From: a virus
Lineage: Duplodnaviria > Caudoviricetes
Strand: one strand, 5' to 3'
Length of the DNA stretch: 27,117 nucleotides
Virus record (IMG/VR): IMGVR_UViG_3300034106_001095
Location: 1-27,117 of that record
The notes under the pieces are model-generated. The model made no database searches. It had not been told where the DNA came from and was given only the letters and a program-made list of their open reading frames with translations. Both the position numbers and the translations under genes were made by a program. Below are positions 2,869 through 11,770 of the stretch, one piece after another; the first letter of the stretch is position 1; every line of letters starts with the position of its first letter.

Positions 2869-3561
2869 ATGGCCGTAGTTTATATACATATGAAGCCCAA
2901 TACTCGGGATATCTTCTACGTTGGGATAGGTAACGACATTAAGCGTGCCTATCGAAACGAGGGGAGAAACGACCATTGGACTAAAGTGTATAACAAGTAC
3001 GGCAAGGTGGTTGACATCATTGCGCAAGACATAAGCCTTGATGCGGCAAAGGAGATGGAAAAACATCTTATTGCCTCACTAAATGATTCGCTCTGTAATA
3101 AAACTCTTGGCGGTGAAGGATTTTTTGGCGGTACGCATTCAGAAGAAACAAAACAAAAGCTTCGAAAGGCTAATACTGGTAAAAAACTTTCTGATGAAAC
3201 AAAGCAAAAGATTAGCGAGAAGTCCAAAGGGCACCCTAACTATTTAAAGTTTCATACCGAAGAAGCAAAGATGAAAATCTCTGCTGCATTTAAAGGAAAG
3301 AAGCGAAGCGAATACTTTTGCCAACGAGCTAAAGAAGCAAAGCAAGGATATCGCCCGCACCCATCTTCTTGGGAGAATGCTGCTAAACTTAAAAAAGAGA
3401 ATGCTTCTCTAATCAAGGAGCTTACTACTGGATTTGTTGGCAAGATTTGGGAGATTCAAGAACGATTCGACATTCAAAAACAAGCAGTATACTCAAACTA
3501 TAAACACGACAAGCCTATCACCAAGTTCAAATGGGCTGGTCTTAATTTTGTAAAACTATGA
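2869..3561 (+). mobile_element. Free-standing GIY-YIG-type homing endonuclease with NUMOD3 repeats
   Basis: VVYIH...FYVGIG...R...E...N catalytic pattern; HSEETKQKL / LSDETKQKIS / HTEEAKMKIS NUMOD3-like repeats; AT-richer than most of the window. Confidence 0.85.
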
Positions 3562-4259: not shown

Positions 4260-4324
4260 GGGCAATAAAGCGCACTATAAGACGCATAAACCCATCACGA
4301 GGCGCATTTTATGACCCATTATAT

Positions 4325-4744
4325 ATGACAAAGAACTTCACCCTCAAGGAACTGTGCGTCACCAAAACGGGGATACACAACGAACCGAATGCCGAGCAGA
4401 AGGAAGCGTTGCGTTTACTGGCGGTAAACATTTTGCAACCTGCTCGTGATGCTCTTGGGCCTATTAAAGTGACGTCTGGGTTCCGCAATGCAAAGGTCAA
4501 TGCAGCCATCAGCGGCAGCCGTTCCAGCCAGCATATGAAAGGTGAAGCGGCTGACCTGCAATGCGATGACAACGCTGCTCTGTTCAAGTTCATTAAGACG
4601 CTGGAGTTCGACCAATTGATTTGGGAGTTCGGAGATAAGGAGCAGCCCGACTGGGTTCACGTTTCTTTCTCCAAGAGAAATCGCAAGGAAGTCCTCCGTG
4701 CGAAGCGAGTTGGAGGCCAAACCAAATACACCCCGTTCAAATGA
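4325..4744 (+). CDS. Endolysin, peptidase M15 family (Zn-dependent)
   Basis: SGFR...SQHMKGEAAD...WVHVS zinc-ligand motifs of Peptidase_M15_3. Confidence 0.9.
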   Translation: MTKNFTLKELCVTKTGIHNEPNAEQKEALRLLAVNILQPARDALGPIKVTSGFRNAKVNAAISGSRSSQHMKGEAADLQCDDNAALFKFIKTLEFDQLIWEFGDKEQPDWVHVSFSKRNRKEVLRAKRVGGQTKYTPFK

Positions 4745-5211: not shown

Positions 5212-5365
5212 AATTTTCTTTTATTAATTTTCTTTAAGTTAAGTTTATAGAAGTAATAGTTACTTACTTAAGTAGTTATATATAACTAACTAACTTACTT
5301 ATATACTACTTACTTTGGTAAAATAAACCAAAATTCGGACTACGCAACTTTTTTCTTATTTTTTT
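5212..5365. repeat. AT-rich intergenic region with 16-bp perfect palindrome and AAGT/ACTT short repeats; candidate replication origin
   Basis: TAGTTATATATAACTA at 5273-5288; TAAGT/TAGT units mostly to the left and AACT/ACTT units mostly to the right; part of the largest non-coding gap in the window. Confidence 0.5.
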
Positions 5366-5577: not shown

Positions 5578-5970
5578 ATGAAGGAACCCACTACGACCTC
5601 CACGGCAACTTCACAGAGTCATTCGTATGAATTGACCCTCGGAAAGGTTCCGTCCTTGAACAAATACTACTCGGGAGCGCATTGGGCTATCCGTAAAAAA
5701 GAGGGAGACCTTATCCGCAACCACCTTTTGATGCAGCTTGCACAGTTGCCGAAGGTGGTTCTCTCGTCTTACGAGATCCACCTCACCCACAACTACCGAT
5801 ACGACAACGACAACTGCATCACGGCAATCAAATTCGGGGCAGATGCTTTCCGTTATTGGGGAGGTTGTGTTGATGATACCTCCAAGTACTTCACCAAATT
5901 GACAATTCAAAAGGACTCTGAACTCCCTGTAAATACTGGGCTTTTGAAAATAATTGGAAAAAAAGTGTAG
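5578..5970 (+). CDS. RusA-like Holliday junction resolvase
   Basis: PSLNKYY...HW, DNDNC..KF..DA and DD motifs typical of RusA-family endonucleases. Confidence 0.7.
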   Translation: MKEPTTTSTATSQSHSYELTLGKVPSLNKYYSGAHWAIRKKEGDLIRNHLLMQLAQLPKVVLSSYEIHLTHNYRYDNDNCITAIKFGADAFRYWGGCVDDTSKYFTKLTIQKDSELPVNTGLLKIIGKKV

Positions 5971-5975
5971 ATATA

Positions 5976-6007
5976 TTTTTTTATTCCAACTTTCTTTTGT
6001 TACTTTG
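5976..6007 (+). promoter_or_regulatory. Bacteroidota sigma70-like promoter (-7 element TTACTTTG)
   Basis: One mismatch to TAnnTTTG; -33 is degenerate; surrounding sequence resembles 10068-10122. Confidence 0.5.
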
Positions 6008-6018
6008 CCTCATCATTA

Positions 6019-6028
6019 AAAACCAATC
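6019..6028 (+). promoter_or_regulatory. Leader motif AAAACCAATC copy 1
   Basis: 3 nt before ATG 6032. Confidence 0.8.
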
Positions 6029-6031
6029 TAA

Positions 6032-6247
6032 ATGAAAGCACACGTTCGAAAGCTGGTTGCGTTGAGCAAGATGTTCCCCAACCACTACGCCCTCATCTCT
6101 GACCGCACAAGGGTCACCGTCCAGATGGACTACGATCAAGATACGTTTGACCAACTCATCGACAACCCCAAGTGGACTGCCGACCTGTCAGACATTGACT
6201 TCACCCGTTTCACCCGTGGCAACTGCCAAGTAATCCTTGCAATGTGA
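6032..6247 (+). CDS. Hypothetical early protein
   Basis: 71-aa ORF after the promoter and leader motif. Confidence 0.75.
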   Translation: MKAHVRKLVALSKMFPNHYALISDRTRVTVQMDYDQDTFDQLIDNPKWTADLSDIDFTRFTRGNCQVILAM

Positions 6248-6405
6248 TGGAATACGGAACCCGCACCAACTGGTCGCAAGAGGCGGCACAACAAATGGTT
6301 GAGTACCTACAACACCGAGTTGAAGCAATGGCCGCAAAGATGGAGTTCTTGGAAGCCGAGAACGAGGTACTCAAGCAAACTCTCCTTCACGAATTAAGGC
6401 ACTAA
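6247..6405 (+). CDS. Hypothetical coiled-coil protein, 52 aa
   Basis: Manually read MEYGTRTNWSQEAAQQMVEYLQHRVEAMAAKMEFLEAENEVLKQTLLHELRH; TGATG coupling to the upstream gene. Confidence 0.75.
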   Translation: MEYGTRTNWSQEAAQQMVEYLQHRVEAMAAKMEFLEAENEVLKQTLLHELRH

Positions 6406-6429
6406 CACCCGCCTCCGAGAGGTGTTAAA

Positions 6430-6439
6430 AAAACCAATC
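6430..6439 (+). promoter_or_regulatory. Leader motif AAAACCAATC copy 2, preceded by hairpin TAACACC...GGTGTTA (6403-6427)
   Basis: 6 nt before ATG 6446. Confidence 0.8.
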
Positions 6440-6445
6440 TAAAAA

Positions 6446-6895
6446 ATGAAGATTGTATCTATCTCCCCCAACGGAACGTGGAACTCAAACGACGGCAACA
6501 CGTTCTACAAATTCCAGATTCAGTTCGACAACGGACAAAGCGGAACCCTGTTCTCAAAGAGCCAAGATGCACCGCATCAAGTAGGCGAGGACATCAACTG
6601 CACCATCAACGAACGAGGCACCATCAAGGTCGAGCGTTCTGGTGGTGGTAACTGGAACCGAGGCGGTGCAGCACCTCGTGCTAACGATGCCGAGCGCACC
6701 GCATCTATCGTCCGTCAAGTTGCACTAAAGGCAGCGGTAGAACTGTCAGCAGCTCACGCAGCAGCAGGCAAGTCAATTCCTACGGATAACATCCTTGATC
6801 TCGCAGAGCGGTTCAACGCTTGGCTGGAGAAAAAAGAAGTAAAGCACGAAGCGCATATGGCTATACGCCAAGCGGTAGAGGAGTCGCCTTTCTGA
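6446..6895 (+). CDS. Putative single-stranded DNA-binding protein
   Basis: OB-fold-like aromatic beta N-terminus, Gly-rich linker, acidic C-terminal tail ending EESPF; upstream of the helicase. Confidence 0.6.
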   Translation: MKIVSISPNGTWNSNDGNTFYKFQIQFDNGQSGTLFSKSQDAPHQVGEDINCTINERGTIKVERSGGGNWNRGGAAPRANDAERTASIVRQVALKAAVELSAAHAAAGKSIPTDNILDLAERFNAWLEKKEVKHEAHMAIRQAVEESPF

Positions 6896-6939
6896 TTGGT
6901 TTTGGTGGTGACTCTGGGGGGGTAGTGATGCACCCCCCA
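6894..6939 (+). ncRNA. Antisense-to-leader element GATTGGTTTTG plus G7/C6 hairpin
   Basis: Exact reverse complement of AAAACCAATC at 6894-6903; TGGGGGG (6915-6921) pairs with CCCCCCA (6933-6939). Confidence 0.5.
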
Positions 6940-6943
6940 ACTT

Positions 6944-7007
6944 GGTCGGGTGTTGCAGTACAACTGTTGCCTCATTTGCAATGCTGGTTCGAGTCCAGCC
7001 CCGACCG
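6944..7007 (+). tRNA. Minimal 64-nt tRNA-like element with CAT at the anticodon position (non-canonical)
   Basis: Acceptor GGTCGGG/CCCGACC; T-arm GCTGG-TTCGAGT-CCAGC; D-like arm GTTG-CAGTA-CAAC; anticodon arm GTTGC-CTCATTT-GCAAT; no variable loop; no encoded CCA. Confidence 0.7.
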
Positions 7008-7010
7008 CAA

Positions 7011-7045
7011 AAATTCCCGCATCTGGAATTTATTTTGTTTATTTG
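7011..7045 (+). terminator. Weak hairpin with T-rich tail, overlapping a possible promoter -7 element (TTTATTTG)
   Basis: AAATTCC/GGAATTT stem followed by ATTTTGTTTATTT. Confidence 0.3.
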
Positions 7046-7048
7046 CAC

Positions 7049-7058
7049 AAAACCAATC
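7049..7058 (+). promoter_or_regulatory. Leader motif AAAACCAATC copy 3
   Basis: 2 nt before helicase ATG 7061. Confidence 0.8.
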
Positions 7059-7060
7059 TT

Positions 7061-7963
7061 ATGCATCCAGACATCCTGTCCATCACGGACACAAGCCCCT
7101 TTCTCGAACGGGCGCAAAAAGGTTCTTACTTCGATATGGGGAGAATCGGTAACGAGAAGATTGACGAGTTCCTGCGATTTAAGGAGGGGGAGTTCATCGT
7201 CTGCACGGGTCACGCCAACGTGGGCAAGACGCACACGATGTTCTATCTGATGCTGATGCAGTCCATCACCCACGGGAAGAAGTGGCTCTGCTATGCGGCG
7301 GAGAACGAGGTTCACTCCATCCAACGAAAGCTGATTGAGTTCCTGCACGCAAAGCCAATCAACTTGATTCCAGAGGCGAAGATGCACTCCGACCTGTGCT
7401 TCATTGATGAATACTTTAAGTTCATAAACCCGAACAAGATTCTCTCGGCATTCGAGCTGCTACAAATCTTCAACGAGGTATTGAACGAATGGCAGTACAC
7501 GGGTGCCTTCATTGACCCGTACAACTCCCTGCGTACCGACCAGAGCGTATTGGGCAAAACCTCGATGCACGAGTACCACTATGAGGTAGCAAGTGCCTTT
7601 CGGGTGTTCTCACACAAGGAGAAGGTCACCTTGATACTTTCCACCCACCCAGTCACGGAAGCAATGCGGAAGGTTCACCACGATAAGCACGAGTACGCCC
7701 GCCTCCCGATGCCTGTAAACATCGCCGACATTGAACACGGGGGCAAGTGGGGAAACCGCTCTGACTGTGTAGTCGTAATTCACCGCTATTCGGGCCACCC
7801 TACCGACTGGAAGCATACCCACATCCACGTCCGCAAGGTCAAGGAGACGGAGACAGGAGGACGCATCACCCCTTATGACAACCCGATCGTGCTGACCTCG
7901 ATGATGGGTAACGTAGGATTTACGATTGACGGACAAAATTTATTGAACTGTGTTGCCGTTTGA
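7061..7963 (+). CDS. DnaB-like (SF4) replicative helicase, no primase domain
   Basis: Walker A GHANVGKT, Walker B region FIDPYNSL, GGKWGNRSD and KVK motifs. Start placed at ATG 7061 because the longer ORF overlaps the tRNA-like element. Confidence 0.85.
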   Translation: MHPDILSITDTSPFLERAQKGSYFDMGRIGNEKIDEFLRFKEGEFIVCTGHANVGKTHTMFYLMLMQSITHGKKWLCYAAENEVHSIQRKLIEFLHAKPINLIPEAKMHSDLCFIDEYFKFINPNKILSAFELLQIFNEVLNEWQYTGAFIDPYNSLRTDQSVLGKTSMHEYHYEVASAFRVFSHKEKVTLILSTHPVTEAMRKVHHDKHEYARLPMPVNIADIEHGGKWGNRSDCVVVIHRYSGHPTDWKHTHIHVRKVKETETGGRITPYDNPIVLTSMMGNVGFTIDGQNLLNCVAV

Positions 7964-8207
7964 GTTCTTCCTCCAGCAGAAGGTCATCGATCTTGGCACA
8001 ACTGCCCAATGGATTTTGGAGCAGCACGGTTACGATGGGGCAAAGCACTTCAACAATGTCTTTGACGCCTCCCGAACCATCGAACAGTACCGACAATTTC
8101 ACAACGAAATATCAATGAAATTCTACCAGATGTCAGTTGAGAAGCAGGCACTCGAACAGAAGGTCTTGCAACTTGAACTTGAACTCCAAAAAAAATATGA
8201 ACTATAA
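7950..8207 (+). CDS. Hypothetical protein with C-terminal coiled coil
   Basis: 85-aa ORF overlapping both neighbours. Confidence 0.6.
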   Translation: MLPFEFFLQQKVIDLGTTAQWILEQHGYDGAKHFNNVFDASRTIEQYRQFHNEISMKFYQMSVEKQALEQKVLQLELELQKKYEL

Positions 8208-8592
8208 AGATTTTTGCGTACTGGTCGACCATAAGGACGACGGCAGACGGACGCTTGTGAATGTCAAGGTGCGAGCAGCATTCGCACATTCATTCCGAAA
8301 GCGGTATAAATTGGTAGAGCTTGCAGAGCAAATGGGAAAGACCCACGCTACGGTGATTCATTATATGAACCTTGAGTTCAGAAAGGATGCCGAATACTGG
8401 AGATGCTACCAGATAGCGCAGTCAATAATCAATTCAGAGGAAGTAGTAGACACCCTTGACATTGATACTTTGGTCAAGGAACGTACCCAGATGCAGCAGC
8501 GTTTGGCGATGAAAACTACGGAAGTGGCTATGTTACAGGAGGAAGTGGTACATTTACGTCTAAAATTAGAGCGATTAAAGCAAATGATTTAA
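8197..8592 (+). CDS. DnaA domain IV/TrpR-like HTH protein with coiled-coil tail
   Basis: LVELAEQMGKTHATVIHY matches the DnaA C-terminal signature (L..IG..fg.dHtTV.H). Confidence 0.7.
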   Translation: MNYKDFCVLVDHKDDGRRTLVNVKVRAAFAHSFRKRYKLVELAEQMGKTHATVIHYMNLEFRKDAEYWRCYQIAQSIINSEEVVDTLDIDTLVKERTQMQQRLAMKTTEVAMLQEEVVHLRLKLERLKQMI

Positions 8593-8624
8593 TATCGCAA
8601 TTCTACGCAAAGAAGCGTAAGGTC

Positions 8625-9140
8625 TTGGTGAATTTCACGAAGGGTTACGTTGGCGTCGAAGTAGCCGAGGACGTGGTGCAGGAGGTGTTCATTCGCCTCT
8701 TGCAACTTGCCGAGGAAGGGAGAGTTCACTTCATCCAGAACGGAGAGGTGAACTTTTTTTTTGTGTACCGCTCCTGCATCAACCTGTGCATTAAACTTCA
8801 AAAGCAAAAGGAGAATTTGCACAAGCTGAACTTTGGGGATATGTACGAGTTGGATGAATGGCTCCGACAACCAGAGAATGAATACAACTACGAGGAGGAC
8901 GTGGCCTACGAGCAGCTGCTGAACTCCGTCAAGGATCAAGTCGAGGTCATCCGATGGTACGACCGTATGATACTGGAAATAAACCAAGAGATGAGCATCA
9001 GCGAAATGAACCGCTCCATCGGCATCTCTCGTGACTCAATTCGCAACACATTAAAACAAGCAAAGAATGAAATCAGAACAAACATCCAAGCCGACTACGA
9101 AGCGTGGAAGAAAGCCAAAAGGGGCGGGAGACGTGATTGA
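8625..9140 (+). CDS. ECF-like sigma70-family RNA polymerase sigma factor (start uncertain)
   Basis: Region 2 AEDVVQEVFIRL; region 4 HTH MSISEMNRSIGISRDSIRNTL. Confidence 0.8.
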   Translation: MVNFTKGYVGVEVAEDVVQEVFIRLLQLAEEGRVHFIQNGEVNFFFVYRSCINLCIKLQKQKENLHKLNFGDMYELDEWLRQPENEYNYEEDVAYEQLLNSVKDQVEVIRWYDRMILEINQEMSISEMNRSIGISRDSIRNTLKQAKNEIRTNIQADYEAWKKAKRGGRRD

Positions 9141-9468
9141 AAGCATCACGGAAGCGACAGGAATCAAAGCAGCCGTTGAATGGTTCTCCGAGGTTACTGG
9201 AGTTGACTGCGGTTGCGATGCCCGCAAAGAGAAGCTGAACAAGTTGTTCCCTATCAAACAACCGCATTGCCTTGAGCAGGCGGAGTACACGTTCTTGGGA
9301 ACCGTCTTGGGTAAGCACAAGTTGACCGCCATTGAGCGTGAGGAGATTGCTCGCATTCACGCACGGACTTTCCAGCACAAGATGGTTGTGCCTTGCACCT
9401 GCTCCCCTAAATTATGGGCTGGGTGGATTCGTGACCTCCAGAACTTATACGACACCTATGGTGAGTGA
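9067..9468 (+). CDS. Conserved phage hypothetical protein with CGC/CTC motifs
   Basis: GAGDVIESITEATGIK...DCGCDARKEKLN...CTC; possible metal binding. Confidence 0.7.
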   Translation: MKSEQTSKPTTKRGRKPKGAGDVIESITEATGIKAAVEWFSEVTGVDCGCDARKEKLNKLFPIKQPHCLEQAEYTFLGTVLGKHKLTAIEREEIARIHARTFQHKMVVPCTCSPKLWAGWIRDLQNLYDTYGE

Positions 9469-9961
9469 TGCTCGCTGGGCGCAGTCCAGAGAGGTCGGAA
9501 AGCAGGGTGAGGAGAGTTTTGTCTTGGCTTGCGAAGCACTTGGGTACCGCTGCCGAAAGAGCAGCAGGCAAGAAGACATTGAATTGCACATTGACTATTG
9601 GGTAACCCGACCGCAAGGGGAGACCTCTGTTGACGTCAAAGGACAGAAGAAGAACGAGGAGGTCTGGGTTGAGTTAAAGAACGTCAGAGGCCACGCAGGG
9701 TGGCTCTACGGCCACGCTGGGTACATTGCCTTTGAGATGGCTTCGCTTGGTGGGTTTGTTGTGGTGTCAAGGTCGCAGCTGGCAGAGCTGATTGAGATAA
9801 CAGTTGAGGAAGTGTTCGTCCGCAGGGACGATGCCTACCTCAAATTGTACCAACGAGATGACCGCCTTGATGTAATTACACGCATTGAATTAAGTGACCT
9901 TGAACTTTTACCAACTTTCAAAATCATAAACTATGCCCATTCCAGTTCCCAAGCCCGCTGA
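9458..9961 (+). CDS. PD-(D/E)XK nuclease-like protein
   Basis: G..GEE.F, ID..V...VDVK catalytic pattern; ATG at 9458. Confidence 0.65.
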   Translation: MVSDARWAQSREVGKQGEESFVLACEALGYRCRKSSRQEDIELHIDYWVTRPQGETSVDVKGQKKNEEVWVELKNVRGHAGWLYGHAGYIAFEMASLGGFVVVSRSQLAELIEITVEEVFVRRDDAYLKLYQRDDRLDVITRIELSDLELLPTFKIINYAHSSSQAR

Positions 9962-10076
9962 AACGCAGGAAAAATTCATCCAAAGATGCGTCTCAAATGA
10001 CGTAATGAACACGGAGTTTCCCGATGAAAAGCAAAGGATTTCAGTTTGTTACGCCCAATGGCGAAAAAAAATGTAA
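9933..10076 (+). CDS. Small conserved phage protein, 47 aa (MPIPVPKPAETQEKFIQRC...EFPDEKQRISVC)
   Basis: Read manually; fills the gap before the promoter. Confidence 0.7.
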   Translation: MPIPVPKPAETQEKFIQRCVSNDVMNTEFPDEKQRISVCYAQWRKKM

Positions 10077-10082
10077 ATAATT

Positions 10083-10114
10083 TTTGGTGGTCTGGTTTTT
10101 TGTTTGTTACTTCG
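10083..10114 (+). promoter_or_regulatory. Bacteroidota sigma70-like promoter
   Basis: TTTG (10083-10086), 20-nt spacer, TTACTTCG (10107-10114); spacing fits the -33/-7 consensus. Confidence 0.6.
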
Positions 10115-10129
10115 CTTCATCAAACAAGT

Positions 10130-10139
10130 AAAACCAATC
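10130..10139 (+). promoter_or_regulatory. Leader motif AAAACCAATC copy 4
   Basis: 3 nt before ATG 10143. Confidence 0.8.
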
Positions 10140-10142
10140 ACA

Positions 10143-10469
10143 ATGAAAACCCTACAAGATTATCTCAACGAAGAAGGCGGAGCGAATTATCTTTTCAACT
10201 GCGCTATGTATAATTTATTCTCATCTTATAGCGACCGTGAATATGCTTCTATTTGTGGTTCGTTCTATGATGGCGTGGTTACTTGGGCAGACCACAACAT
10301 TGATGACGTGGAGGAGGTTTGTAATACAAAGTATAAGGGCTGGGTTCTTCACCTTTCGGAAGGTTATGTCGGCAAAGCTTACATCCCTAACTGGGTATTG
10401 AACCTTAACGTAAGCAACTATAAGCACGCCAAGTGCTTGTTCAACAAGTACATCAGAAAGGTTAACTAA
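10143..10469 (+). CDS. Hypothetical accessory early protein
   Basis: ATG after the leader motif; 108 aa; AT-richer than neighbours. Confidence 0.75.
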   Translation: MKTLQDYLNEEGGANYLFNCAMYNLFSSYSDREYASICGSFYDGVVTWADHNIDDVEEVCNTKYKGWVLHLSEGYVGKAYIPNWVLNLNVSNYKHAKCLFNKYIRKVN

Positions 10470-10506
10470 ATCAAAACGGGGAGCAGCATCCGAACAACTG
10501 CATCTT

Positions 10507-10516
10507 AAAACCAATC
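10507..10516 (+). promoter_or_regulatory. Leader motif AAAACCAATC copy 5
   Basis: 3 nt before ATG 10520; preceded by a short GCAG...CTGC stem. Confidence 0.8.
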
Positions 10517-10519
10517 AAG

Positions 10520-10660
10520 ATGAACAAACTCCAAAACATCATCATCGACATCACCGTCCCTTTGGCGTGGATGCTCATCCTGTCGGCTGCCTTCTTTGCA
10601 GTTGTACTCCTTCCTCAAATCATATTCGTTCAGCTATGCGACTGTCAGCCGACTTTCTAA
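10520..10660 (+). CDS. Small membrane protein, 46 aa
   Basis: Manually read MNKLQNIIIDITVPLAWMLILSAAFFAVVLLPQIIFVQLCDCQPTF. Confidence 0.7.
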   Translation: MNKLQNIIIDITVPLAWMLILSAAFFAVVLLPQIIFVQLCDCQPTF

Positions 10661-10911
10661 TGGACTATGCCGAGCGAATCGGTATCGCCCCAGAGGATGC
10701 AGGCCCTCGCACTTGGAATGAAATCTTCGCCGACTGGGCAGGGTTCAAATCCGTAGACGATATGATACGATATGAGCTGCACGTTGATATTGACAACTGC
10801 GATGCTCCAGACGGCAAGTTCCACGATGTGGACTTCGTTCACTACCCTTACGAACCAAACCTCCCGTTTGATGTGAACGAGATGTACAAGGCAATAGAGA
10901 AGGATTTATGA
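10636..10911 (+). CDS. Acidic hypothetical protein
   Basis: ORF with ATG at 10636 (alternative 10660); Asp/Glu-rich. Confidence 0.65.
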   Translation: MRLSADFLMDYAERIGIAPEDAGPRTWNEIFADWAGFKSVDDMIRYELHVDIDNCDAPDGKFHDVDFVHYPYEPNLPFDVNEMYKAIEKDL

Positions 10912-11117
10912 TGCCCCGTATATTCAAAGAGCTTGTGACCCGTGAATGCACGGACTGCAAGGAGGTAGTGGCAGGCAATTACTTCACGCATTGCAAGCGC
11001 ACCAACAAGAACGAGGTGGTGTACTATCAGCGTTCAGATTGCAAATTCTGTCGAGCAAAGAAGGAACGTGACCGCAGGGCAGCATCCAAAAAAAAGTCAA
11101 ACGTACAGACCATATGA
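10908..11117 (+). CDS. Zinc-ribbon protein
   Basis: CTDC...CKFC motif with a basic tail. Confidence 0.7.
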   Translation: MMPRIFKELVTRECTDCKEVVAGNYFTHCKRTNKNEVVYYQRSDCKFCRAKKERDRRAASKKKSNVQTI

Positions 11118-11770
11118 GAGCGGACATAATACACGGAAACTGTCTGGAGGAACTGGCAAAGATTGACCTCAATTTAATCAATCCAGTATTCGTGAGCGAC
11201 CCTCCGTTCAATGTTGGGTATAAGTACGCAACATATAAAGACAGAATGAAGGAGGCGCAATACTATCAGATGCTCGCTTCAGTTTTTTCAGCTCATCCTC
11301 ACGTCTTGATTCACTACCCAGAGCAACTGCACAGGTACTCGATTGAAATTGGAACAATGCCCTCAAGGGTGGTGAGTTGGGTATATAATTCTAACACGGC
11401 AAAACAACACAGAGACATCGCCTTCTATAATGTGTCTCCAGATTTCAAGCAGTACGGGCAGGAGTACAAAAACCCAAAAGACAAGCGAATAGCAAAGCGA
11501 GTCGAGGAAGGAAAGAAAGCCCGCCTCTATGATTGGTGGCAAATCAATCAAGTCAAGAATGTAAACAAAGACAAGACAGACCACCCCTGCCAAATGCCAC
11601 TTGAAGTGATGCGGAGGATTGTCGGAGTTCTTCCCGCTGGAGTTACTGTCATAGACCCATTCCTCGGAAGCGGAACAACTGCTCTCGCTTGTAAGCAACT
11701 GGGAGTCCCATTCATCGGAATTGAGATGGATGAGAAGTATGTCGAGATTGCAAAAAAAAGAATACAATGA
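11114..11770 (+). CDS. Orphan DNA methyltransferase (N6-adenine/N4-cytosine, beta class)
   Basis: Motif IV SDPPF precedes HPCQMP and motif I DPFLGSGTT. Confidence 0.9.
   Translation: MRADIIHGNCLEELAKIDLNLINPVFVSDPPFNVGYKYATYKDRMKEAQYYQMLASVFSAHPHVLIHYPEQLHRYSIEIGTMPSRVVSWVYNSNTAKQHRDIAFYNVSPDFKQYGQEYKNPKDKRIAKRVEEGKKARLYDWWQINQVKNVNKDKTDHPCQMPLEVMRRIVGVLPAGVTVIDPFLGSGTTALACKQLGVPFIGIEMDEKYVEIAKKRIQ

Follow-up and report, generated by a model that had tools for sequence, protein, structure and literature searches.

Few base-pairing RNAs of phages are known, and the literature searched revealed no example that is located at the end of a coding gene and controls early operons of the phage that makes it. 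The C4 RNA of phages P1 and P7 is described as a phage RNA whose loops pair with short sites at the ribosome-binding regions of phage mRNA, and a few base changes in RNA and target are reported to shift its specificity (PMC5320573). In cluster K mycobacteriophages, a repeated asymmetric motif termed SAS was described 3-7 bp before the start codons of genes for non-structural proteins; four of the genomes hold one reverse copy each, and no function is assigned to the motif there (PMC3203893). In this study, we analyzed a 27-kb phage contig (Duplodnaviria; Caudoviricetes; IMG/VR virus record IMGVR_UViG_3300034106_001095, positions 1 to 27,117), hereafter called the window, which comprises 27,117 nucleotides. 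Here, the motif AAAACCAATC precedes five early translation starts, and its single reverse copy overlaps the stop codon of a gene whose product resembles a single-stranded DNA-binding protein (SSB-like gene, 6446-6895, plus strand). We conclude that this feature is real and selected. In the open-access literature, covered by listings and the starts of abstracts, no description of such an arrangement was found, which does not prove its absence.

Leader motif, complementary loop and their change among relatives

An exact scan of the whole window placed AAAACCAATC on the plus strand at 6019-6028, 6430-6439, 7049-7058, 10130-10139 and 10507-10516. These sites lie 3, 6, 2, 3 and 3 nt before the ATGs of a hypothetical gene (ATG at 6032), the SSB-like gene itself as a self-target, a helicase gene, an accessory gene (10143) and a further small gene (10520). 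On the minus strand the motif occurs once, at 6894-6903; read on the plus strand, this copy is the putative anti-leader seed GATTGGTTTT, the first base of which is the G of the SSB-like TGA stop codon (6893-6895). The six matches compare with a mean of 0.12 in dinucleotide shuffles, none of 100 reaching six, and with both strands counted AAAACCAATC is the commonest 10-mer of the window. Allowing one mismatch added two sites (7351 and 25541), each within a reading frame. When 40 gene ends were compared, the SSB-like end matched five leaders over at least 9 nt and the runner-up with two. The scan agrees with the earlier note on the five copies, on their distances of 2-6 nt to an ATG and on the lone reverse copy overlapping the SSB stop; the extension to 11 nt that the note described for three copies (7048, 10130 and 10507) was verified as well, with the caveat that C7048 is probably upstream of the predicted helicase start site. 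Two candidates were set aside. The reverse copy is not the leader of a minus-strand gene, since no ATG follows it on that strand, and the copies of a 4+1 repeat, AGCAGCATTC, lie within reading frames.

For comparison, 411 loci were gathered with the SSB-like protein and five helicase sequences as queries, taking at most the best 80 per query; the set is redundant, many loci being near-copies or from the same contig. Class counts were derived from 408 loci and the window, 363 of which had an SSB match, with 342 of these ending in PF. According to the sequence after the stop codon, we distinguished the classes A (148 loci), B (21), C (52), D (45) and E (76). In class A, TTC TGA TTGGTTT faces the leader AAAACCAATC, in class B, TTT TAG TGTGTGTGTTTT faces AAACACACAC, and in class C, TTT TAG GTGTTTC faces AACACCTAAAA. 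Leader words collected de novo, without use of the element, were mostly the reverse complement of the stop region in representatives of A, B and C; in E and D, no stop-region complement was found apart from A/T-only words. None of the three motifs holds GGAG or GAGG and thus none matches the CCUCC core of the anti-Shine-Dalgarno sequence.

To compare elements and leaders across classes, start-associated complements of at least 9 nt were counted per locus in the five longest loci of each class. The resulting matrix is diagonal, with 0-1.4 sites per locus off the diagonal. The A element found 4.8-5.8 sites on A leaders, 0-0.7 on B leaders and 1.0-1.2 on C leaders, the B element 2.2 on B and none on C leaders, and the C element 2.8 on C and none on B leaders. 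Shuffled elements equalled the site count in 0-3 of 200 cases for class A, 0-13 for class C and 5-62 for class B.

The change can also be followed on individual genes. Orthologues of the 46-aa gene starting at 10520 (MNKLQ...) switch their leader motif with the class: 12 of 15 shown (16 in total) carry the A motif, 10 of 10 the B motif and 12 of 17 shown (20 in total) the C motif, the remainder of the latter having an A-type leader (three) or a mis-chosen start (two). The counterpart of the gene at 6247 is first in its operon in classes B and C and there bears the B motif in 20 of 20 cases (at least 7 nt); of the 43 class C cases shown (48 in total), 39 bear the C motif. In A and B, the motif precedes the helicase gene; the 40 class C helicases shown (51 in total) are leaderless. 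Coupled and leaderless genes have no site. In a helicase tree with 34 sequences, A, B and C are grouped (100/100) with B and C as sisters (99/94), and therefore at least two concerted switches have to be assumed. The earlier note had made its proposal hinge on a covariation of leader motif and post-SSB complement in related phages; classes A, B and C are all matched in this way, and in none of them did the motif change without compensation. A 9-nt match in one further locus (L221) was dropped as leader covariation, as it lies within the SSB reading frame. Other reverse copies number 48 in 1.42 Mb of class A sequence; judging by their six commonest contexts (37 of 48), they were discounted as being mostly Asp-Trp-Phe codons of one gene.

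The end of the SSB-like gene is predicted to form a hairpin at 6880-6915 (plus strand), here called the display hairpin, with the last codons as 5′ arm (6880-6888), a loop of 18 nt (6889-6906) and a 3′ arm at 6907-6915. The loop holds the last codon, the stop codon and the seed. Across classes A, B and C, the predicted loops have 15-22 nt, and display hairpin and next hairpin together have a folding z-score of −3.6. In A, B and C, the stop codon is located both in the loop and within the paired stretch, despite the change from TGA to TAG. With the seed kept unpaired, the enclosing stem was compared with shuffles of its 3′ arm in unique segments and was better in 66 of 70 (A 52/52, B 3/3, C 11/15). 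With the length fixed, the test gave 38/40, 3/3 and 10/14 for A, B and C, while the controls gave 1/40 (class E), 9/40 (helicase stops) and 3/60 (stops of other open reading frames). The class D score of 11/26 likely reflects the terminator inside the test window. A subset of 20 class A segments with similar loop length was picked from the 70 unique segments. Four Watson-Crick pair types occur at each of its two variable stem pairs, and 98.8% of the stem cells pair, versus 71% after column shuffling and 32-45% when slid. Relatedness inflates such counts, yet stems of unrelated sequence in five lineages are hard to explain otherwise. The word GACTGG in class C was rejected as a relic seed, because it is the 3′ arm of the stem.

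In most relatives, a terminator-like hairpin and a T run come next after the display hairpin. In the window, this place is occupied by a G/C hairpin (6916-6938, plus strand) without T run, which was not called as terminator. Downstream of it lies a degenerate tRNA-like cloverleaf (6944-7006, plus strand), which, like the display hairpin, is new beyond the earlier note. It reached 22.5 bits (versus 47) and an E value of 0.5 with the Rfam tRNA clan, and ARAGORN called no tRNA at this position. Such folds were found in 13 of the 148 loci of class A and in 9 of the 52 of class C. A role as initiator-tRNA guide was discarded, since the fold is that rare and its CAT anticodon loop is replaced in close kin (L005, L006). 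Related degenerate folds were seen in L118, L120 (~9807-9928), L121, L122, L126, L133, L136, L141 and L388; they share with the window a near-identical acceptor stem (GTCGGG/CCCGAC), their anticodon arms are different or expanded, and they are inserted 3′ of the module in two separate lineages. Possibly, these folds are 3′-end processing signals; cutting by RNase P at the fold could make the 3′ end of the RNA.

Spacing and register bear on whether the motif is read as RNA or as DNA. In 189 of 196 class A contexts with perfect core, the gap to the start codon is 2-7 nt. No promoter-like box was present within 25 nt in 95 of these contexts, and in the others it is 3-25 nt away. In 33 contexts, all of the helicase, the box is 3-5 nt from the core, and here the upstream A run is lost: pairing on the upstream side shortens from 2.4 to 0.45 nt, that on the downstream side lengthens from 1.3 to 3.6 nt, and about 11 bp are retained. 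The −7 box TAnnTTTG is reported to span −12 to −5 from the start site (PMC9723704), so that most helicase messages of class A would start (+1) with the first A of ACCAATC. Two loci ending in TTT instead of TTC lack the downstream extension. The sites are concentrated in early regions, with 362 in 686 kb versus 7 in 337 kb of late sequence in class A, 31 versus 0 in class B and 76 versus 0 in class C (redundant loci). For the window, predicted duplex energies range from −12.8 to −16.8 kcal/mol, with opening costs of 1.4 for the seed and 0.2-2.8 for the targets. The restriction to early genes, the fixed distance to the ATG and the sparing of coupled and leaderless genes argue for RNA-RNA pairing over a DNA operator. 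Taking all RNA readings together, we consider it highly probable that the SSB 3′ loop pairs with early leaders.

Direction of effect and rival explanations

We favor, with modest confidence and from comparative sequence data, a reading in which the loop would be a phage-made antisense repressor of the phage's own early operons, including that of SSB, which blocks ribosome loading. The last codons, stop codon and 3′-untranslated region (UTR) of the SSB-like gene would fold into the display hairpin and expose a U/G-rich loop, which would pair with the 9-13-nt motif before the start codons of early operons and thereby keep ribosomes from loading on these leaders. The predicted duplex covers approximately −16 to −3 and ends 0-7 nt from the AUG. 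Translation initiation in Flavobacterium johnsoniae is described as requiring upstream adenines and low structure (PMC13000457), and repression is suggested because the duplex covers the A-rich unstructured zone that ribosomes of Bacteroidia need. Precedent for such an effect is the Bacteroides small RNA (sRNA) GibS, reported to repress messages by base-pairing around their starts where neither an Hfq nor a ProQ homologue is evident (PMC7366714). The active species would probably be a stable 3′ fragment of ~60-85 nt with display hairpin and terminator, or, in the window, with display hairpin and tRNA-like processing signal, accumulating as the SSB mRNA turns over. As long as the mRNA is intact, the hairpin would be melted by every ribosome that terminates, and hence the loop would be most available at low SSB translation. 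The outcome would be a negative feedback on SSB and a gradual hand-over from early to late expression.

Of the earlier proposal, according to which an RNA derived from a 3′ UTR pairs with early leaders either to shut them off or to guide initiation, the pairing of the SSB 3′ end is supported by the covariation between classes and by a covarying hairpin that carries the loop. Its initiation-guide variant is disfavored: late genes are nearly without motif, the duplex would come within 0-7 nt of the AUG, and leaders of a similar A/C-rich kind occur in relatives that lack the module. Repression is favored since a required guide should favor late genes and should not be dispensable, and class D lacks the element.

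Several observations weigh against repression by this loop. Class B, with two to three sites and a repetitive low-complexity seed, is not significant alone, because the stated share of its element shuffles does as well. An unmatched A-type leader is present in 3 of 52 class C loci. The SSB gene of B and C lacks a separate site, and its start overlaps the gene before it. The 45 class D loci have UTRs of 4-21 nt without the element, and their leaders are similarly A/C-rich. The 76 class E loci show no stem and self-pairing at most (at least 8 bp in 14 of 43 contexts; cross-class 0-2%), which seems to confine the full module to one clade; in the wider phage family, the system therefore appears dispensable. 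Single core changes were compatible with G-U pairing in 13 gene-start groups and mismatching in 11; as 6 of the 21 possible changes are compatible, this bias is weak support. Two non-target starts score −13.6 and −13.0 kcal/mol and are thus stronger than the weakest target. The register shift comes from one gene family, so that its printed p-values are overstated. Host, promoters and start sites are predictions, and the direction of effect is argued from geometry and gene distribution only.

Some further observations were made on relatives outside the matched classes. Class E loci such as L250, L252 and L282 have AAAGAGAG-like words before many starts, possibly an alternative Shine-Dalgarno type of their hosts. 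In L205, L206, L207, L213 and L230, a gene with its own short hairpin is inserted 3′ of SSB, and a U/G-rich stretch remains by the terminator that precedes the helicase. Gene order differs in the group with the most distant helicases (L292-L323), which yielded only A/T-rich leader words. Among cultured phages, the matches in FpV9 and in the initial 35 kb of Panino were A/T-rich only.

Instead of repressing, the loop might capture a leader and hold its AUG across from the stop codon of SSB. A ribosome terminating there would open the duplex and initiate anew on the captured mRNA, with translation activated in trans or ribosomes recycled on their own mRNA. The position of the stop codon in loop and paired stretch of all three classes, kept from TGA to TAG, fits such a termination-coupled hand-off, although a seed adjacent to the stop codon is expected anyway in a UTR of 15-30 nt, and in some class E loci with a post-SSB gene the U/G-rich stretch is found by the terminator, away from the SSB stop. 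The hand-off would also explain why the site is missing from coupled and leaderless genes, where ribosomes need not be loaded anew, and it would suit a host likely unable to use Shine-Dalgarno pairing; late genes, presumably the most heavily translated, are nearly without site, however, and class D phages manage with A/C-rich leaders and without the module. We regard the hand-off as unlikely. Its broader version, trans-coupling by stop-to-start docking as a design that recurs across phages and includes the SAS of cluster K mycobacteriophages, is in our opinion similarly doubtful.

An explanation with about the same small chance is that the loop acts in cis only, on leaders of its own transcript (the operon 5′ end, the SSB leader and, on read-through RNA, the helicase leader), the other copies being by-products of a strong promoter-leader cassette that was copied. 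Sites 1-3 of the window could indeed share one transcript, the promoter regions at 6000 and 10107 are alike beyond the motif, and class E shows a self-complement only. Yet the second early operon lies ~3.5 kb downstream behind a promoter-like box of its own, and its leader changes motif together with the element in all of A, B and C; class A loci have 4-8 sites with unrelated flanks at helicase identities of 59-100%. Pairing in cis with the helicase leader was rejected as the purpose of the loop, because class C helicases have no leader and a terminator-like hairpin lies between.

It is quite improbable that the pairing chiefly alters mRNA stability, by shielding of 5′ ends or nuclease recruitment, with a secondary effect on initiation. 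Many sites are at most ~20 nt from the predicted 5′ end, and that of the class A helicase starts at the predicted +1, but the spacing is fixed relative to the start codon and not to the promoter, which is 3-25 nt away or missing.

Still more remote is an asymmetric, stoperator-like DNA operator or a protein-bound RNA site, with the reverse copy as a further DNA site. A changed protein specificity would also predict a concerted change of the motif, asymmetric repeated operators are described in mycobacteriophages (PMC9283540), and T4 RegA is reported to repress ~30 messages at their start regions (PMC3014915). Such a site would leave unexplained why the single reverse copy sits in the loop of a compensatory stem, why the spacing is linked to the ATG, and why the conserved stretch ends at the predicted +1, with a 3′ extension that varies with a synonymous codon of SSB; an RNA-binding protein, moreover, would not read the reverse complement. 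Chance, or the meeting of ordinary A/C-rich Bacteroidota leaders with a U/G-rich UTR, is very unlikely: A/C-rich leaders do occur in all classes, and the class D leader of L194 resembles class E leaders in the absence of an element, but 0 of 100 shuffles reached the site count, cross-class pairings of the same composition fell to 0-1.4 sites, and the stem covaries.

Window layout, promoters and host

Lysis and tail genes occupy the left part of the window and terminase and structural genes its right part, with an early region at ~5.6-14.7 kb. The operon genes, the hairpin and the promoter boxes described in this and the next paragraph are on the plus strand. The SSB operon is opened by the 71-aa hypothetical gene (6032-6247, no PHROG family), followed by a 52-aa gene (6247-6405) which overlaps the preceding stop codon and is motif-free in the window. 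A predicted hairpin just 5′ of site 2 (6403-6427) may be a processing or stabilizing element. The SSB-like gene (149 aa) belongs to phrog_993, function not assigned, and its product is predicted to have a five-strand N domain, a helical C part and an EESPF tail; the C-terminal P-F is invariant in 61 sequences. The protein model (pLDDT 78) matched OB domains (RecO, PriB, SSB) at Z 4.3-5.4, below the trust level of the tool. Based on position, P-F end and OB-like five-strand domain, the product is a putative SSB, a name we infer rather than assign because of these low structural scores. No Pfam family was matched, the ESM Atlas gave viral clusters without names only, significant matches in the viral fold library were confined to uncharacterised or unnamed proteins, and no homologue was present in the cultured phage collection searched. 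The DnaB-like helicase gene (7061-7963) matched phrog_18375 (E 1e-31). The second early operon begins with the 108-aa accessory gene (10143-10469, no PHROG family), followed by the 46-aa gene (10520-10660).

Three likely −7 boxes for the host sigma-A were located: TTACTTTG, an imperfect TAnnTTTG (6000-6007, predicted start site 6012), TTTATTTG before the helicase (7038-7045, predicted start site ~7050; TATATTTG in many relatives) and TTACTTCG (10107-10114, predicted start site 10119). These TAnnTTTG-like boxes and the best cultured matches, namely in Flavobacterium (terminase, 39.6%), Maribacter and Cellulophaga phages (helicase, 28-33%), point to a host among the Bacteroidota. Phage helicase contigs in genome bins labelled Aquiluna, Ruminiclostridium and Planktophila (L409-L411) are probably misbinned.

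Besides, a sigma-factor-like gene was found at 8585-9140 (phrog_1740). Two late genes have TTATAT a few bases from the ATG (301-313; 4319-4327), which suggests near-leaderless late messages from a phage sigma. A perfect 16-bp palindrome, TAGTTATATATAACTA, at 5273-5288, a possible origin or protein site, is embedded in a low-complexity ACTT/AACT stretch between lysis and early regions that recurs in relatives. A homing-endonuclease gene lies between tail genes (2869-3561, phrog_314).

Comparison with known systems

The module resembles C4 in that a hairpin loop is complementary to translation-start sites of the phage, and the RNase P processing described for C4 may parallel the tRNA-like fold (PMC5320573). 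C4, however, is described as an RNA in its own right, ~77 nt long with three stems and two loops, which acts in immunity and lysogeny (PMC5320573), whereas the module has one loop, derived from the last codons and stop codon of a protein gene, and 2-8 early leaders as targets. In 5900-11200, Rfam gave no C4 match up to E 5 and no match of any family above threshold, and the predicted fold comprises one display hairpin and a second hairpin, not the three stems of C4.

GcvB is a separate host sRNA of enteric bacteria and depends on Hfq. Its U/G-rich seed is described as covering a C/A-rich translation enhancer upstream of start codons (PMC3879156), to which class B comes closest with UGUGUGUGUUU facing ACACACA. 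In the module, by contrast, the seed is loop-displayed at the end of a phage mRNA, perfectly complementary to the phage targets and appears to co-evolve with them. Judged by these analogies, the module would function like C4 and GcvB, and it is a member of neither.

In sRNAs derived from 3′ UTRs, a seed adjoining the stop codon is followed by a terminator-like hairpin, and the module shows this order in most relatives, the hairpin of the window having no T run. As a predicted RNA, however, the module has its 5′ stem arm in the coding sequence, and its likely host lineage is described as without obvious Hfq or ProQ (PMC7366714). Two features of trans-acting sRNAs were found, a seed predicted to be accessible against several translation starts and a co-variation of seed and targets that is weak for class B alone. 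A shut-down of many early or middle messages at their starts and a feedback on an SSB gene, resembling what is proposed for the module, are described for T4 RegA and gp32 (PMC3014915), which act as proteins, with no shared exact motif and no complementary RNA. With three natural matched sets of seed and targets, a swap would test pairing and direction together, with a bearing on translation control where ribosomes ignore Shine-Dalgarno sequences and Hfq is absent.

By analogy of layout, the SAS of cluster K mycobacteriophages is the closest architectural parallel. In Anaya (L412:29874), Angelica (L415:1638) and CrimD (L416:1839), the lone reversed SAS forms the 10-nt loop CCUCCUAUCC of a predicted long hairpin; no such reversed copy was found in the right parts of TM4 and Pixie examined. 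As a side observation, this loop resembles an anti-Shine-Dalgarno sequence. SAS differs by its Shine-Dalgarno core and a reverse copy off the stop codon, and the phage motif described here is unrelated to the 13-bp SAS consensus GGGATAGGAGCCC. The parallel in cluster K1 makes the question of a pairing partner for SAS testable in a cultured laboratory system.

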